Below, in pieces: positions 33,665-50,000 of a DNA stretch of 59,304 bases. The position numbers and the translations under genes are program-made. The stretch's first letter is position 1, and each line of letters opens with the position of its first letter. The DNA is from Negativicutes bacterium (lineage in GTDB: Bacteria; Bacillota; Negativicutes; JAGPMH01): NCBI GenBank assembly GCA_018052945.1, contig JAGPMH010000003.1:1-59304 (forward strand), in the 5' to 3' direction. Below the pieces are notes generated by a model. The model had not been told where the DNA came from. It did no database searches and saw nothing but the letters and a program-made list of their open reading frames with translations.

Positions 33665-33928
33665 ATTTCTACTCAAAAAAATATAAAAGCCCTTCATCCC
33701 AAAGGACGAAAGGGCTTACTTTCGTGGTACCACCTTAATTTTCCATAGCACTTTTACTATGAACTCAACGCCAATAACGAGGCGAACCGATTACACCTAC
33801 TATAAATTTCAGCATAACAGCTCCAAAGCTACCTTCCATTATGTTTTATGAAAGACCTCTCAGCCTAGGGTCTTCTCTCTTGCCATAAAATTATAATGTA
33901 CTCTCTTCTTCATTGCCTTTTTTATATA
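33665..33928 (-). promoter_or_regulatory. T-box leader controlling valS
   Basis: Minus strand carries AGAGAG/GA motifs and the T-box sequence AAATTAAGGTGGTACCACGAAAG (33719-33740). This overlaps the terminator AAGCCCTTTCGTCC..GGATGAAGGGCTTTT plus a T run (about 33675-33718). The specifier was not confidently placed by eye. Confidence 0.85.
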
Positions 33929-33964: not shown

Positions 33965-34417
33965 TTAGTCTTCTTGTATTAATCTAACCAGCAACTCTTC
34001 GGTCAATTCTTCTTCCGAATATACAGCAACCCCTGCTAAAGTTAACATCTGCGCCGTCAATCCTTGCCCCTTAACCTTTTTGTTTTGAAAAGTACCATCA
34101 TAAACTAGCTTATTTCCGCACGAAGGACTATTAGCTTTTAAAATTGCAGTCTTTATGCCCTGTTTTTTAGCTAATTTCATGGTTAGATAAGCACCATTGA
34201 TAAAGTAATTTGTAACATCTTCACCCTTATTAGTCAAAACTTTATTAGCGGTAATCTCCGCTGGATTTCTTGGAATGCTTAGTCCTGCTAAAACCTCTGG
34301 GCAGACCACCTGAAATTTAGCTAAATGTTTATATTTATTTAATATTTCATTATTATAACCACTGCCATCATATCTAACCTTCTCGCCTAATAAACACGCA
34401 CTTACTAATATCATCAT
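33965..34417 (-). CDS. DUF523/TudS-like [4Fe-4S] protein
   Basis: 150 aa. ILVSACLLGEKVRYDG.., ..CPEV.GGL.. and ..SPSCG provide the three conserved Cys of the family. Confidence 0.75.
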   Translation of the reverse strand: MMILVSACLLGEKVRYDGSGYNNEILNKYKHLAKFQVVCPEVLAGLSIPRNPAEITANKVLTNKGEDVTNYFINGAYLTMKLAKKQGIKTAILKANSPSCGNKLVYDGTFQNKKVKGQGLTAQMLTLAGVAVYSEEELTEELLVRLIQED

Positions 34418-34424
34418 CTGCTCC

Positions 34425-34976
34425 TTAAAATTTATTATCTTTTAAATTTAACTTCGTTATTAATTGAGCAAAATTCTTACTGTTTAATTTTCTGGTTGCT
34501 AAAACAGCCACCATTGCACAAACTTTAGAATCATGCAATGCATTATGGTGTTTAAAGTTAATATTAAAATAACTCGCCAAAGTATTTAATTTATGATTTT
34601 CTAGCTCCGGCCATACTTTTTTCGCTAAGCTTACTGTACAGTAGTATTTAAAATTAGGCTTTTCTAAATTATAAGTATTAAGTATACTTTTTAATACGCT
34701 CATATCAAAACTGGCATTATGCGCTAACACAATGTTGTTATTTAAGTAGCCTTTTAGTTCAGCCCAAATGCTAGGAAAGGTCGGCATATTTTTTACGTCA
34801 GTTGCTGTAATGCCATGAATTTGTGTATTATAATAACTAAAATCCATCACTGGCGGTTGCACTAAAGAATAAAACATTTCATACATCTTATTATCCTTAA
34901 CGCCAACTACCGCCACACTGCAAACACTGTCTCTACTACTATTAGCTGTTTCAAAATCAATTGCCACAAATTCCAT
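34425..34976 (-). CDS. DEDDh 3'-5' exonuclease (DnaQ/epsilon-like, stand-alone)
   Basis: 183 aa. ExoI AIDFETAN, ExoII LAHNASFDMSVL, ExoIII HHNALHDSK. Confidence 0.85.
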   Translation of the reverse strand: MEFVAIDFETANSSRDSVCSVAVVGVKDNKMYEMFYSLVQPPVMDFSYYNTQIHGITATDVKNMPTFPSIWAELKGYLNNNIVLAHNASFDMSVLKSILNTYNLEKPNFKYYCTVSLAKKVWPELENHKLNTLASYFNINFKHHNALHDSKVCAMVAVLATRKLNSKNFAQLITKLNLKDNKF

Positions 34977-35077: not shown

Positions 35078-36967
35078 TCACTCTATATTTTTCAGCCATA
35101 AATTCTGAAACAACTCAGCTTGTGCTGTAATCGCTTTAATAACATCTTTTAAAAAGTCGAAATTACTGGCCAAAACAGCATTAATATACTCATTTTTAAT
35201 GATAATAATATTGGCCTTTTTGGAAATAACCTTGGCACTAATAGAACTTTCTTTAGCTTCAAATAAATTATTATATGAAATAATATTACCGAAACTCAAA
35301 TCTCCAAGCTTACGATTCCACCCATCATTACTACTTCTAATAACCTCTACTAAGCCCTCGTAAATAAGATAGATATTATCTTGCAATTCACCTTCCGCTA
35401 AAATAATATCACCTTTAATATATTTTTTTACCATGATATTTTTTGTTAATGTTTGCCATTCCTTATCAGTTAAATTACCAAACAATTCTTTTTTTCTAAG
35501 CTCTGCTAAGCCCAACTTGAAAATACGCTCTTCCTCAGCGGTATCAACAATATCTTCAGGTTCTTCGATTAGCTTTAGCTCTGAAATTTTAGCATTAGGT
35601 TTTGTTACCATCTGCGTTAACACGCCAAGAAAATTAATTAATAAGTTTTCAATATTGTTTTTGCTAAATACTATTTTATTGTAAACAAATTCAATCTGAA
35701 TTATTTCGTCAATTTTTCGAAAATAAATTATGAGGTCATTTTCATTATCATCATAAGAATTAATCGCTACAATTTTTACCCCCAACGAAAAATCAACTTC
35801 AGTAAATCTTTTGCTATTATAAAAATCATAAAAGTTTAAAACATGATTAAAGAGATTCTTGCAGTTCGGCCAAAGGAGTTCTAATTCTTTTTGACTACAA
35901 CCACTATAGCTTTTTGCAATAAATAAATGAACTTGTTGGCGTTTAAACGCATAGCCAATTCTATCTTCCTGATTTTCTCTTAATCGCACCGGTAAAATAT
36001 TAATCACATTTGAAAAATCGGCATTATCAATATCATCATTGTGGTTAGATAAGACTATCCCAAAAGTAGCATCATTTTCTTTACTATATTTTTGTAACAT
36101 CAATCCCCAAGCTGTTTCAAATAAAGCTATTAATCGACCATTAGTATTAGCAAATTCAGTAGTAAGATTTGTCAAATTTTCATCTAGTTCTGTCACAAAC
36201 GAATCTCGTTCATATAACCCTAAATCATTTTGACTCATCGGTAATTCCGGAGCCTTTGCATCAAATAGTATTTTCTTCCAATATGCAAAGGTTTTAATAA
36301 TATCTTCCTTACTGCGATTTTCTAAATACTGCGTAAAAGAATATTGCCGCGAACTCGGCATTTGCGCAATTAAGTCTAATCCTTCTTGATCCTGAAAAAT
36401 ACCATTGAAAATATTTTTCATATCCCAATTATCTTCAATTAATTGTGGGAAAACAATCAACATCGCATAGGTATCGGCTGCAAATCTTATCACTCTAACC
36501 CGCAGTAGCCGATCTTTTTTTAAATCAAACCCTCGCCGTTGTCCCACCAACAATAATTCATCCAAAAAATAATCAATATTGTCTACTTTCATTTTTATAT
36601 AATCTAAAAAAATTATTTCCGGTGCTCGCTCCGGTAAAATTACTTGTAAGCTTCTCTCATTATTAATAAAAAAAGCTGTCCGCAAAATTGGATTATTCTT
36701 TGCCATTTTTACCAAATTATCTTTTATTATTTTTATATCAATAATGCCTTTTAATTTAAACAATACTTGATTGCAACAATTAGGTGAAAGAAACGACTTA
36801 TTATCTAGCACCCACTGTTGACTTTTGTTGAGCGGCTTAACATCTTCAATACTGTAAAAATAATAACTTCTGATTTCTTTTAACTCTTCTTCTGTTAATT
36901 GAGCAATAGAAAAATCAGTTTCAACATACTTTTGGTTTTTTTCTGTTACTATTGGCATAAAATTCAC
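35078..36967 (-). CDS. Condensation-domain-like / cyclic-nucleotide-binding-like fusion protein, paralogue B
   Basis: 629 aa. C1-like EDVKPLNKSQQWVL, C2-like NNPILRTAF, C3 position FPQLIEDNWD (HHxxxDG degenerate), C5-like VINILPVRL. C-terminal CAP-like barrel: YIKGDIILAEGELQDNIYLIYEGLVEV. AGAGGG RBS; 25 nt from paralogue A. Confidence 0.75.
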   Translation of the reverse strand: MNFMPIVTEKNQKYVETDFSIAQLTEEELKEIRSYYFYSIEDVKPLNKSQQWVLDNKSFLSPNCCNQVLFKLKGIIDIKIIKDNLVKMAKNNPILRTAFFINNERSLQVILPERAPEIIFLDYIKMKVDNIDYFLDELLLVGQRRGFDLKKDRLLRVRVIRFAADTYAMLIVFPQLIEDNWDMKNIFNGIFQDQEGLDLIAQMPSSRQYSFTQYLENRSKEDIIKTFAYWKKILFDAKAPELPMSQNDLGLYERDSFVTELDENLTNLTTEFANTNGRLIALFETAWGLMLQKYSKENDATFGIVLSNHNDDIDNADFSNVINILPVRLRENQEDRIGYAFKRQQVHLFIAKSYSGCSQKELELLWPNCKNLFNHVLNFYDFYNSKRFTEVDFSLGVKIVAINSYDDNENDLIIYFRKIDEIIQIEFVYNKIVFSKNNIENLLINFLGVLTQMVTKPNAKISELKLIEEPEDIVDTAEEERIFKLGLAELRKKELFGNLTDKEWQTLTKNIMVKKYIKGDIILAEGELQDNIYLIYEGLVEVIRSSNDGWNRKLGDLSFGNIISYNNLFEAKESSISAKVISKKANIIIIKNEYINAVLASNFDFLKDVIKAITAQAELFQNLWLKNIE

Positions 36968-36992: not shown

Positions 36993-38879
36993 TCAGTTTT
37001 TATTATCAACCCATAATTGTTGAAATTTATCAACTTGTGCTGTAATAGATTGAATTACTGCCTTAGCAAAGTCATAATTATTTTTTATAATTTCAGTAGC
37101 AGTTTCGTTACGCACTGCAATAATAGTAGCTTCTTGCGATACAACTCGTGCCCTTAAGCTACTTTCTTTATTGTCAAAAATACCGTCATAAGAAATAAAT
37201 TCACCTTTTTCGATTGTTGCAATTTTCATCGTCCAACCACTTTCTATCGTTCTGCGCAATTCCACCGCACCATCGTAAATAAGATATAGATATTCTTGTT
37301 TTTCACCTTCCGCTAAAATAATATCACCATAAATATAGTTCTTGACCACAATTCCTCTTATTAGCAAGCCTAATTCAACATCAGATAATGCCCTAAATAT
37401 TTCTTTACTACGTAATAATTGAGTAATATTTAACTTTAAGTTTTCTTCATGCTTCACCGGATTTAAAACATCTTGTGGCAAATTAATTTCACCAAGGGGC
37501 AGCCCTTGATCTTTTAAGATTTGATTAATAATATAAAAATAATCTTCCTTGATTTTTTTTATATGAACTTCACTAAAAGCTTCGCGATTATAAATAAACT
37601 CAATTTGAATCTTCTTAGTTAACCGAAAAACAACTACTAAATCTAAATTATAACAATCATAAGATGATAATTTAACTACATTAACACCTAACGCCACCTC
37701 TGCTTGGGTGTATTTTTCTTGCTTATAAAAACTATGAAAATTAAGCATGTGATTAAAGAGAGTTTTCCCACTGAATAAATTCTCCAGTTCTCTTATATTA
37801 CAGCCACTATAAGCCCGTGCTAAAATTAAGTTTGCTTGCTGCCGTTTAACCACATCACTAACCTTTGCAGTTTCACTTTCATTTATACGTACCGGCACCA
37901 AATTTATAATATTAACAAAATCAAGATTATCTTCTTTTCCATCGCGATAATTCGATAACAATAGCGGAAAGACCGCATCATTTACTTTGTTATATTTTTG
38001 GAGCATTATCCCCCATGCAGTTTGTAATAAAACAATCGCATTGGTATTATTTTCTAAATGCTTTTTTATATAAGAAAACATTTTATCATCAATTTCAAAT
38101 AATAATGAATTCATAACATAAGTGTTGCAAGCTTTATGCCCCGGCAACTTTGTTTCAGTAAAGTTATATAGTTTCTTTTGCCAATATTCTAAAGTTTTAC
38201 TAATATCAATGTCCTTGCGTCGCTCTAAATGCTGCGCAAAAGAATATCGTTTAGGAGCAATCATTTTTGCCAAAACATCATCGGTTTCTTGTTCACTAAA
38301 AATTCCATCAAATAAATGTCTAACATCCCAGCCATCAGCTATTATTTGCGGTTGTTGGATGGTAATAGCATAATCCGCATACCCAAAACGCAGTACTCTT
38401 ATTCTAAGCAATCTGTCTTTTTTTAAATCAAAAAAGCGTCGCCGATCTGCAGCCAAAATATTTTCAACAATTTCATCAATTTCAAATTCCGTCAGTTTAT
38501 CTTTCGTAAAATCTATAAAGGTCATTTCCGGACTTCGATCTTGAAGGATGATTTGTAAGGCACGCTCTTGTTGCTTTAAGATGAACGCACTGCGTAATAA
38601 TTCATTGTTTTTTACTAATCCATTAATATTATTTTTGATTTTATTAATGTCAATTAAACCCCTAATTTTAAATAGAATTTGAATACAAAAATTAGGTGAA
38701 ATAATCCCTTGATTATCTAGCACCCACGCCTGACTTTTTGATATCAATTTAACATCTTCGACACTAGCAGAATATTCTTTATTGATAAATTCTTCTTCAG
38801 TACTTGTTAATAGTCCTACACTATATTCTTTCGGCGGATAATATTGTTTTATTTTTTCTTCAAAAGTCATTGTATCCAC
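36993..38879 (-). CDS. Condensation-domain-like / cyclic-nucleotide-binding-like fusion protein, paralogue A
   Basis: 628 aa. C1-like EDVKLISKSQAWVL, C2-like NNELLRSAF, C3 position QPQIIADGWD, C5-like FVNIINLVPVRI. C-terminal YIYGDIILAEGEKQEYLYLIYDGAVEL. Collinear with paralogue B. Confidence 0.75.
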   Translation of the reverse strand: MDTMTFEEKIKQYYPPKEYSVGLLTSTEEEFINKEYSASVEDVKLISKSQAWVLDNQGIISPNFCIQILFKIRGLIDINKIKNNINGLVKNNELLRSAFILKQQERALQIILQDRSPEMTFIDFTKDKLTEFEIDEIVENILAADRRRFFDLKKDRLLRIRVLRFGYADYAITIQQPQIIADGWDVRHLFDGIFSEQETDDVLAKMIAPKRYSFAQHLERRKDIDISKTLEYWQKKLYNFTETKLPGHKACNTYVMNSLLFEIDDKMFSYIKKHLENNTNAIVLLQTAWGIMLQKYNKVNDAVFPLLLSNYRDGKEDNLDFVNIINLVPVRINESETAKVSDVVKRQQANLILARAYSGCNIRELENLFSGKTLFNHMLNFHSFYKQEKYTQAEVALGVNVVKLSSYDCYNLDLVVVFRLTKKIQIEFIYNREAFSEVHIKKIKEDYFYIINQILKDQGLPLGEINLPQDVLNPVKHEENLKLNITQLLRSKEIFRALSDVELGLLIRGIVVKNYIYGDIILAEGEKQEYLYLIYDGAVELRRTIESGWTMKIATIEKGEFISYDGIFDNKESSLRARVVSQEATIIAVRNETATEIIKNNYDFAKAVIQSITAQVDKFQQLWVDNKN

Positions 38880-38904
38880 ACTCCATTTAAGATAACTTAG
38901 TTAA

Positions 38905-38933
38905 ATTATACCATTATGATTTTTTACAAACAA
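38905..38933 (-). promoter_or_regulatory. Extended -10 promoter of the paralogue pair
   Basis: Minus strand TTGTTT (38928-38933), 17-nt spacer ending in TGg, TATAAT (38905-38910). GGAG RBS about 10 nt before the ATG at 38879. Confidence 0.55.
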
Positions 38934-38980
38934 TAAATTCCATTCTTACAATCTTGTTTTTTCTTCGCCTTTTTATAACA

Positions 38981-39026
38981 AAAAGCAACAAAATAGCTCT
39001 TATGTAAGAGGCTATCTTGTTGCTTT
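38981..39026 (-). terminator. Rho-independent terminator of the DEAD-box helicase gene
   Basis: Minus strand AAAAGCAACAAGATAGCCTCTTA-cat-AAGAGCTATTTTGTTGCTTTTT (one mismatch and one bulge), ending in a T run. Confidence 0.75.
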
Positions 39027-39036
39027 TTGCTTCTTT

Positions 39037-49662: not shown

Positions 49663-49738
<76 letters not shown>

Positions 49739-49748
49739 ATATTAAATT

Positions 49749-49823
49749 TGGTGACCCGTAGGGGAATCGAACCCCTGATACCGCCGTGAAAGGGCGGTGT
49801 CTTAACCGCTTGACCAACGGGCC
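49749..49823 (-). tRNA. tRNA-Glu (anticodon TTC), CCA-encoded
   Basis: 75 nt. GGCCCGTTGGTCAAGCGGTTAAGAC..CCGCC-CTTTCAC-GGCGG..GGTTCGATTCC..CCA. Confidence 0.9.
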
Positions 49824-49842
49824 ATATTAATAACTATTTAAA

Positions 49843-49917
49843 TGGTGGGCCCACCTGGGTTCGAACCAGGGACCAACCGGTTATGAGCCGGTTGCTCTAC
49901 CACTGAGCTATAGGCCC
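49843..49917 (-). tRNA. tRNA with CAT anticodon (Met by anticodon; features suggest the lysidine-modified Ile2 type)
   Basis: 75 nt. GGGCCTATAGCTCAGTGGTAGAGC-AACCGG-CTCATAA-CCGGTT-GGTC..GGTTCGAACC..CCA. C4-G69 and C5-G68 pairs and the overall resemblance to E. coli ileX are discussed in the findings. Confidence 0.85.
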
Positions 49918-49924
49918 AAATAAA

Positions 49925-50000
49925 TGGCTCCTTGAGTAGGACTCGAACCTACGACCGATCGGTTAACAGCCGATTGCTCTACCAACTGAGCTATCAAGGA
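49925..50000 (-). tRNA. tRNA-Asn (anticodon GTT), CCA-encoded
   Basis: 76 nt. TCCTTGATAGCTCAGTTGGTAGAGC-AATCGG-CTGTTAA-CCGATC..GGTTCGAGTCC..CCA. Confidence 0.9.

Follow-up and report, generated by a model that had tools for sequence, protein, structure and literature searches.

A conserved Pro-Gln pair at the HHxxxDG position of two stand-alone condensation-domain proteins fused to a CAP-type domain in Negativicutes

The contig JAGPMH010000003.1 of a Negativicutes bacterium (assembly GCA_018052945.1), analysed here over its whole stretch of 59,304 nucleotides (the window), carries on its reverse strand two adjacent paralogous genes, A and B. Each encodes a stand-alone condensation (C) domain, the domain type of nonribosomal peptide synthetases (NRPSs), followed by a CAP-type effector domain. 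Gene A (36993..38870) codes for 625 residues from its ATG, as judged from the open reading frame (ORF), Pfam and gene calls, and gene B (35078..36958) for 626 residues, as judged from the ORF, Pfam and alignment with A. Both frames extend further upstream: the ORF of A (36993-38879) is open from a GTG at 38879, giving 628 residues with the ATG at 38870, and that of B (35078-36967) from a GTG at 36967, giving 629 residues. Public gene calls start at the ATG, with 625 residues for A in the related loci L010 and L012 and 626 residues for B; residue numbers of A below follow the 628-residue GTG frame. The stop codon of A is separated from the ATG of B by about 35 nt, or by 25 nt when counted to the GTG at 36967. 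The two proteins are collinear and share 43% identity over their full length, and an orthologue of B is also present in L010.

The C-domain fold comprises residues 42-470 of A (37470..38756, reverse strand), as defined by the Pfam envelope, the AlphaFold2 model and Foldseek, and residues 41-471 of B (35555..36847, reverse strand). The Pfam Condensation profile (PF00668, cut-off 30.6 bits) matches A with 148.2 bits (E 4e-43) and B with 150.2 bits (E 1e-43), covering nearly its full length of 456 positions (3-449 in A and 2-451 in B). The best solved relatives are the LCL-type C domains of SrfA-C, BacC and TycB. Structural similarity search of the AlphaFold2 model, which was built on the family alignment, using Foldseek revealed C-fold proteins only, the best being 8f7f with an E-value of 6e-23 and a probability of 1.00, in agreement with the V-shaped, CAT-like fold of two lobes; the top matches are the C domains of SrfA-C, TycB and PvdL, with E-values from 6e-23 to 3e-21. 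As the TM scores are just 0.53-0.56 on the target, the orientation of the lobes and the finer details of the model are uncertain.

At the position of the HHxxxDG (C3) motif, A reads P177-Q178-I-I-A-D182-G183 (38331..38351, reverse strand) and B reads P174-Q175-L-I-E-D179-N180 (36428..36448, reverse strand), so that neither has the second His. These seven HHxxxDG-equivalent codons had been located exactly in a preliminary description of this DNA. The extended block runs from Q176 to D185 in A (38325-38354), in the context YAITIQ-Q176-P177-Q178-I-I-A-D182-G183-W184-D185-VRH and with the codons CAA CCG CAA ATA ATA GCT GAT GGC TGG GAT, and from F173 to D182 in B (36422-36451), in the context LIV-F173-P174-Q175-L-I-E-D179-N180-W181-D182. 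In a phmmer alignment of A against the SrfA-C condensation domain (PDB 8f7h; E 1.3e-27), “qqPQiiaDGW” is placed on “svHHiilDGW”, with maximal posterior probabilities around C3, which bears out the earlier assignment: both His are gone, whereas the Pro-Gln pair, the Asp and the following Trp-Asp are kept in both proteins. We also looked for an intact C3 histidine elsewhere in A and B and found neither HH nor xHxxxD; B holds only three His in total. In the AlphaFold2 model, the motif sits between strand 169-177 and helix 186-194, matching the strand-helix position of HHxxxDG in canonical C domains (PMC11546977). For both proteins, HMMER and Foldseek assign the Pro-Gln site to the HHxxxDG loop of LCL-type C domains.

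Across 5.8 billion proteins, 1.8 billion protein representatives, GTDB genomes and JGI metagenomes, our searches found about 25 non-redundant relatives that likewise combine a C domain with a CAP-type domain. All named relatives come from metagenome-assembled genomes of Negativicutes (Massilibacillus, Veillonellaceae, Selenomonadaceae, Schwartzia and Selenomonadales). Because giant NRPSs with multiple C domains dominate the exhaustive search, with 8 family-type proteins in the top 150, the size of the family is a lower bound. A second word-based search with a 14-sequence family profile added no new members, NRPS words having swamped the candidates. A metagenome scan with an alignment of the PH clade described below found no relatives, and one with the whole-family alignment found 13 loci; as the latter were retrieved by the pattern LLQTAWGIM, their PQ is not an artefact of selection. 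NCBIfam holds no model specific for the family, and a full-text literature search combining condensation with cyclic-nucleotide-binding domains found no publication that describes such proteins. The sole source-given name among the members examined, “amino acid adenylation protein”, is a misnomer. A and B are members of a small undescribed family, found only in Negativicutes.

Where canonical domains have HHxxxDG, the family carries the signature Q-P-[Q/H]-x-x-x-D-x-W-D. The main clade, with 16 non-redundant sequences including A and B, reads QPQxxxD[GNASE]W[DN], with Pro, Asp and Trp in 16/16 and Gln in 15/16; the exception is P0016, which has His (QPHLVADSWD). The basal PH clade (P0012, P0141 and L006) reads QPHINxD[GA][VI]S, and a long-branch MSQ subclade (L007, L008 and L029) reads MSQxxx[DE]. 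Pro is thus found in 19/19 sequences of the main-PQ and PH clades, and Ser in the three MSQ-subclade sequences. Throughout the family alignment, D182 (the structural Asp of the motif) and R331 (the Arg of C5) do not vary. The segment QPQIIADGWD is the third best conserved 10-residue window of the main clade (0.82), after LQTAWGIMLQ (0.88) and EADRRRGFDL (0.84). The alignment of homologues hence demonstrates that PQxxxD is family-wide, the residues at these positions being anything but random.

As a control, the C-domain hidden Markov model of the family was aligned to 891 domain matches in 142 large NRPSs taken from the exhaustive search of protein representatives, 861 of which cover the motif columns. 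Among these 861 C and epimerization domains, the second motif position is His in 852 and Gln in 5, four of them within one protein (P0144); at the first position, 836 domains have His and 5 have Pro. The pair is HH in 829 domains and PQ in none. P0144, itself a large NRPS, possesses HQxxxDGWS in four C domains (721, 2286, 3894 and 5560), which, at the level of sequence, suggests that Gln at the “catalytic” position may sustain a multimodular assembly line.

Beyond the motif, we scored 26 core positions, chosen for a conservation of 80% or more among 624 full-length control domains. Canonical domains retain on average 22.3 of them (standard deviation 2.9) and the PH clade retains 20-21, compared to 14-18 in the PQ clade (15 in A and 16 in B) and 11-12 in the MSQ subclade. 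The changes common to the PQ clade are Y44x, Y64F, H177P, H178Q, Y197x, G310N, G322A and F324I, in addition to a Ser-to-Asp change after the motif Trp. The core residues kept are R96, F150, L152, R159, D182, W233, D301, N326, R331 and Y430. At the “SGR” site, the Arg of which is conserved in 99.5% of the control domains, A reads S309-N-Y-R312 (SNYRD; 37944..37955, reverse strand), with the Arg displaced by one residue, and B reads S307-N-H-N310 (SNHNDD; 36038..36049, reverse strand), with the Arg absent, as in the L010 orthologue of B. Most other family members read SNR(S/T)A at this site. In VibH, this Arg is reported to pair with the motif Asp.

A tree of the family and 34 canonical domains separates the family as one side of a branch with an SH-aLRT (Shimodaira-Hasegawa approximate likelihood ratio test) support of 74, compared to 99 for the PH clade and 100 for the main clade. 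The duplication that gave rise to A and B (support 100) took place inside the main clade, before the lineage of the window and the L010 species separated. It follows from this tree that the two paralogues did not keep PQ independently, but inherited it from a clade-wide ancestor. By parsimony, the His-to-Gln change occurred once at the base of the main clade, with a reversal in P0016. The Pro at the first His position is ancestral to the whole family. The gene of P0016 lies at the same locus as its PQ orthologues, between acpS-nnrD-mazEF-metallo-beta-lactamase-DUF3006 and amidase_3-gerM-thiC; with QPH at this shared syntenic locus, His and Gln are interchangeable between orthologues.

Selection on the two genes was estimated by the ratio of nonsynonymous to synonymous substitution rates (dN/dS, Nei-Gojobori). 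The ratio is 0.13 for A against its 69%-identical L010 orthologue, 0.19 for A and 0.20 for B against L012, and 0.31 for A against B. The two domains of A scored separately give 0.13 and 0.15, both being constrained; saturation of dS against L010 makes the values for the domains of B unreliable. In three lineages, the reading frames are intact. At the motif, the codons turn over synonymously, with CAA/CAG for Gln, CCG/CCA/CCC/CCT for Pro and GAT/GAC for Asp. Clustering at 90% identity groups 263 members with A and 262 with B, full-length and fragmentary sequences from many samples being mixed; the motif is invariant in 14/14 (A) and 15/15 (B) of the members examined, in which 18 and 27 other positions vary. 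Judged from these comparisons, the motif loop is under strong purifying selection, not decay, and on this point the preliminary description stands. It had gone further, taking the conserved variant motif as a sign of selection on a new function; the selection is confirmed, but Gln alone is no evidence of a new function, because the HQxxxDM domain of streptothricin ORF18 is active (PMC11546977), P0144 has HQ in four domains and P0016 carries PH.

Contigs of two activated-sludge metatranscriptomes cover both A and B, with word depths of 44-460 and 32-154; the helicase gene upstream has 8-24. Such contig depths reflect expression crudely, and DNA carry-over is possible. Given an organism that abounds in wastewater and metatranscriptomes from there that contain both genes, we conclude that their function is in use. 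At window positions 38880-39036, upstream of A, the contig depth falls from 83-97 to 5-9, and one contig ends at 38880 and continues into Illumina adapter sequence. This end could be the 5' end of a transcript, about 10 nt before the ATG of A.

The C-terminal part of each protein is a CAP/CRP-type effector domain, that is, a beta-barrel resembling those that bind cyclic nucleoside monophosphates (cNMPs), followed by a long helix. It occupies 36996..37337 in A (reverse strand; barrel residues 515-601 at 37077-37337 and helix 602-627) and 35081..35428 in B (reverse strand; barrel residues 514-601 at 35165-35428), the latter defined by Pfam PF00027 and alignment with A. The cNMP_binding profile PF00027 (cut-off 27.5 bits) matches A with 36.0 bits and B with 30.8 bits. 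However, neither protein has the phosphate-binding cassette F-G-E-...-R-[ST]-A. Aligned to cGMP-dependent protein kinase, A places I-S-Y-D on F-G-E-A and S-S-L on R-S-A, so that the contacts to the cNMP phosphate are missing; within the cassette only a Ser is near-invariant in the family, and B reads SSISAK. The best full-domain PDB matches of the C-terminal domain are PrfA, the ligand of which is glutathione, not a cyclic nucleotide. The AlphaFold2 model ends in the long helix 602-627, which in this prediction resembles the dimerisation helix of CRP-family proteins. Compared to the effector domains of CRP, FNR and PrfA, A and B share a beta-barrel with a long helix above the Pfam threshold, but have no helix-turn-helix output, lack the Gly-Glu and the Arg of the cassette, and carry the domain C-terminal to an enzyme-like domain.

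The genomic surroundings differ among the clades. In the PH clade, L014 encodes a 335-residue PP-binding protein, the family gene, an Sfp-type phosphopantetheinyl transferase (PPTase), a MatE-HATPase_c_2 fusion, a STAS protein and an alpha/beta-hydrolase; L006 encodes the family gene, a family 2 glycosyltransferase (GT2), an AMP-binding enzyme and an adenylation-thiolation-condensation (A-T-C) protein; and L032 has the MatE-HATPase_c_2 fusion directly upstream of the gene. Outside the window, the neighbours of PQ-clade genes are unrelated housekeeping genes, such as those for RNase G, hydrogenase, folE/folP, YitT and GT2, and no NRPS-type neighbour (carrier, adenylation or PPTase) was found in at least 8 distinct contexts. 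Within the window, phmmer with A-T, PP-binding, PPTase, STAS, HATPase_c_2, SpoIIE and metallo-beta-lactamase queries gave no match among the ORFs of the 59 kb. By neighbour Pfam and this window search, A and B thus have no A/T partners in cis; members of the basal PH clade have them. Genes of the MSQ subclade form part of partner-switching operons, in the order HATPase_c_2, family gene, STAS and dCache-HAMP-SpoIIE.

Partner-switching genes repeatedly flank non-PQ members (L029:269-5105, L008:9833-16526, L014:4519-6609 and L032:2185-3927), encoding RsbW-like HATPase_c_2, RsbV-like STAS and dCache-HAMP-SpoIIE proteins and, in the PH clade, the unusual fusion of a MatE efflux transporter to HATPase_c_2. 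At Sporomusaceae-type loci, a metallo-beta-lactamase-fold protein precedes the gene (L013:5721-6814, L030:4778-5870 and L002:8589-9524), accompanied by DUF3006, and this protein has a weak match to the Anti-Pycsar protein Apyc1, a cyclic-nucleotide phosphodiesterase. An Apyc1-like protein adjoining a gene with a cNMP-like domain is suggestive; the metallo-beta-lactamase protein and DUF3006 are absent from the window.

Compared to the LCL-type C domains of SrfA-C (PDB 2VSQ and 8F7F-H), TycB and BacC, which are the best matches in both sequence and fold, A and B have the full-length PF00668 and retain the N-terminal (V/I)EDxxPLxxxQ, the LRT of C2, FDL, D-x-W, the N..P.R of C5, the LF(N/D)H block of C7, the structural Asp and the C5 Arg. 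They differ by PQ in place of HH, a Gly that is not conserved, Asp instead of Ser after the Trp, the loss of Y197, G310, G322 and F324, and the shifted or lost “GR” Arg; moreover, they are stand-alone, with a CAP-type fusion and no A or T domain in the protein or its neighbourhood. They are also distinct from heterocyclization (Cy) domains, since DxxxxD is absent and the first position is Pro, not Asp. VibH and SgcC5, the latter a Foldseek match, are likewise stand-alone C folds, which use one carrier-bound and one soluble substrate; however, they keep HHxxxDG, belong to biosynthetic clusters and have no regulatory domain. The X domain (Tcp12, PDB 4TX2/4TX3) was matched by Foldseek with an E-value of about 1e-15, weaker than the LCL domains. 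The motif of X and interface domains reportedly differs from PQ, reading HRxxxDD. As in A and B, X and interface domains combine a C fold lacking the catalytic His with a conserved variant motif; C-like domains without the second His can act as scaffolds, and these two types are non-catalytic recruiting scaffolds (PMC10510592 for X domains, PMC13638107 for interface domains). Yet they reside within NRPS modules beside peptidyl carrier proteins (PCPs), recruit P450s or oxygenases and have no CAP fusion, whereas A and B stand alone with no NRPS or P450/oxygenase neighbour. Streptothricin ORF18, compared here by its published description, is a functional domain with Gln at the second-His position (HQxxxDM; PMC11546977), but it keeps the first His, is a C-PCP protein in a biosynthetic cluster and has a known substrate. 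With this HQ type A and B share the Gln only, having Pro at the first position, no PCP and no cluster. C-like domains with variant motifs are already known; the novelty here lies in the PQ signature, in a stand-alone fusion of C and CAP domains, in a distribution restricted to Negativicutes and in a graded series from PH through PQ to SQ.

We propose that Gln178 (Gln175 in B) would be held on the Asp-anchored loop at the centre of the two-lobe cleft, where it could bind or orient a ligand through hydrogen bonds and would not be able to act as a general base. Each family member is a stand-alone LCL-type C domain fused to a CAP/CRP-type effector domain with a long terminal helix. The basal clade, whose genes adjoin those for a carrier protein, an Sfp-type PPTase and adenylation enzymes, still has the catalytic His. 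At the base of the orphan clade, which is devoid of NRPS-type neighbours, His changed to Gln, and this clade also lost about eight other core residues; in the lineage of the window, the “GR” Arg was then lost or shifted, followed by the duplication into A and B. The preliminary description had regarded the second His as the general base of C domains. That view is superseded: several C domains remain active after mutation of this His, and its role is currently seen in positioning the acceptor amine (PMC10510592, PMC11546977). A hydrogen-bonding role for Gln in the cleft fits both this positioning function and the activity of the HQxxxDM domain. As a whole, the explanation that PQ-clade proteins maintain a polar binding or positioning site and are mostly non-catalytic is, in our judgement, moderately well favoured. 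The proteins of this clade have most likely lost the ability to join two carrier-bound substrates by a peptide bond. The chances are about even that they are repurposed binding or regulatory modules, controlled via the CAP-like domain that would respond to a ligand other than cNMP, and probably dimeric via the C-terminal helix.

Several observations weigh against this proposal, and most of them speak for A and B being enzymes still, in which Gln would replace His in orienting the nucleophile, as in HQ-type C domains. Much like VibH or SgcC5, such proteins might slowly transfer an acyl or aminoacyl group, assisted by Gln, from a trans-acting thioester (acyl-acyl carrier protein, acyl-CoA or a distant carrier) onto a soluble acceptor, the CAP-like domain gating the activity. 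Gln supports catalysis in ORF18, the Q to A mutant of which is impaired in activity (PMC11546977), and several C domains can do without the second His (PMC10510592). P0144 is one assembly line with HQ in four C domains, and orthologues that share a locus carry either His or Gln. Few segments are better conserved than the motif loop, which is equally expected of an active enzyme, and the retention of the structural Asp (D182), the C5 Arg (R331) and the C2 Arg (R96) together with N326, W233 and D301 leaves the active-site scaffold largely intact. Given that the basal PH clade lies in NRPS-like clusters, the ancestor was very probably an enzyme, and partners of A and B might be encoded elsewhere in the genome. 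In addition, the AlphaFold2 model is of moderate confidence (pLDDT, the predicted local distance difference test, is 72.5, and 62-76 around the motif), and the monophyly of the whole family has an SH-aLRT support of just 74%, even if independent support for it comes from the fusion and the Pro that all clades were taken to share by descent. Against continued canonical catalysis, we weigh the loss of partners, with no carrier, adenylation or PPTase gene adjoining any PQ-clade member across the contexts surveyed; the coordinated erosion of the core, in which Y44, Y197, G310, G322 and F324 have gone and the “GR” Arg, otherwise 99.5% conserved, has moved by one residue in A and disappeared from B; and the fact that the MSQ subclade, the most derived one (core 11-12/26), has drifted into partner-switching rather than biosynthetic operons. 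On balance, we regard persisting catalysis as a real but somewhat doubtful possibility.

The alignment itself might mislead, the true catalytic His lying elsewhere, for instance at H377 or H382 of A in the C7-like block F-N-H-x-L-N-F-H, given that H377 is invariant family-wide and that the PQ and PH clades also keep H382. However, His is also the commonest canonical residue at the H377 site (187/624, with HH intact) and is present there in SrfA-C, which makes it an ordinary feature of the subtype; B has Tyr in place of H382, and the scarcity of His in B, the lack of any HH or xHxxxD in either protein and the maximal posterior probabilities at C3 point the same way. We reject a relocated His as very improbable. 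Still less credible is a reading of A and B as decaying remnants of an NRPS pathway that has been lost, with a PQ shared merely by inheritance from the duplication. Their orphan context and the loss of several canonical residues would agree with decay, but it is effectively refuted by the dN/dS of 0.13-0.20 for both genes with frames intact in three lineages, by synonymous codon turnover at a motif kept across members just 25-35% identical, and by the invariance of the motif in the population, with about 260 near-identical cluster members per gene and both genes in metatranscriptomes. By analogy with VibH, an attachment of polyamines to peptidoglycan was also considered; it was dropped, as the family is rare (about 25 non-redundant sequences) and not a core gene of Negativicutes.

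His-less C-like domains, including Cy, X, interface and CmodAA domains, have repeatedly brought new chemistry or scaffolding roles. To our knowledge, all of these lie within assembly lines. The case of A and B differs in that a free-standing C fold with a conserved Pro-Gln is fused to a CAP-type sensor, occurs in diderm Firmicutes only and mostly lacks NRPS partners. The family forms a graded natural series, from PH members with carrier, PPTase and adenylation neighbours through PQ orphans to SQ members in partner-switching operons; together with the one His/Gln swap between orthologues, it allows the debated function of the second His and the path by which an enzyme becomes a pseudoenzyme to be tested with few proteins. 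More speculatively, and in our view rather unlikely, the family might be the first condensation-fold protein to have moved from assembly lines into signalling, as a dimeric protein, gated by a ligand of its non-cNMP CAP-like domain, whose Gln cleft binds a small acyl or peptidyl ligand and which in some lineages is a target or output of partner switching of the RsbW/RsbV/RsbU type. If so, the natural His/Gln toggle would be a ready test of what the “catalytic” His does in C domains.

The window shows features of a diderm Firmicute common in wastewater metagenomes, namely a T-box valS leader, an AcrAB pump and a G+C content of about 34%. A and B are neighboured upstream by a DEAD-box helicase, htpG and acrAB, and downstream by a DEDDh exonuclease, TudS and valS. 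The DEDDh/RNase T-like exonuclease and the TudS-type 2-thiouracil desulfurase follow gene B at 33965-34976 (reverse strand), and they are syntenic with the A/B pair in L010 and L012 as well. As other lineages have RNase G or unrelated genes instead, the linkage is limited to the lineage of the window; a functional link of A and B to the helicase, the exonuclease or TudS is unsupported, the neighbours differing in every other lineage. A promoter scan gave 34 matches versus 32 expected from shuffling, and a terminator scan was likewise uninformative. Upstream of valS lies a full-length T-box leader (33699-33922, reverse strand; 137 bits), and a cluster of four tRNA genes is located at 49666-50000 (reverse strand).

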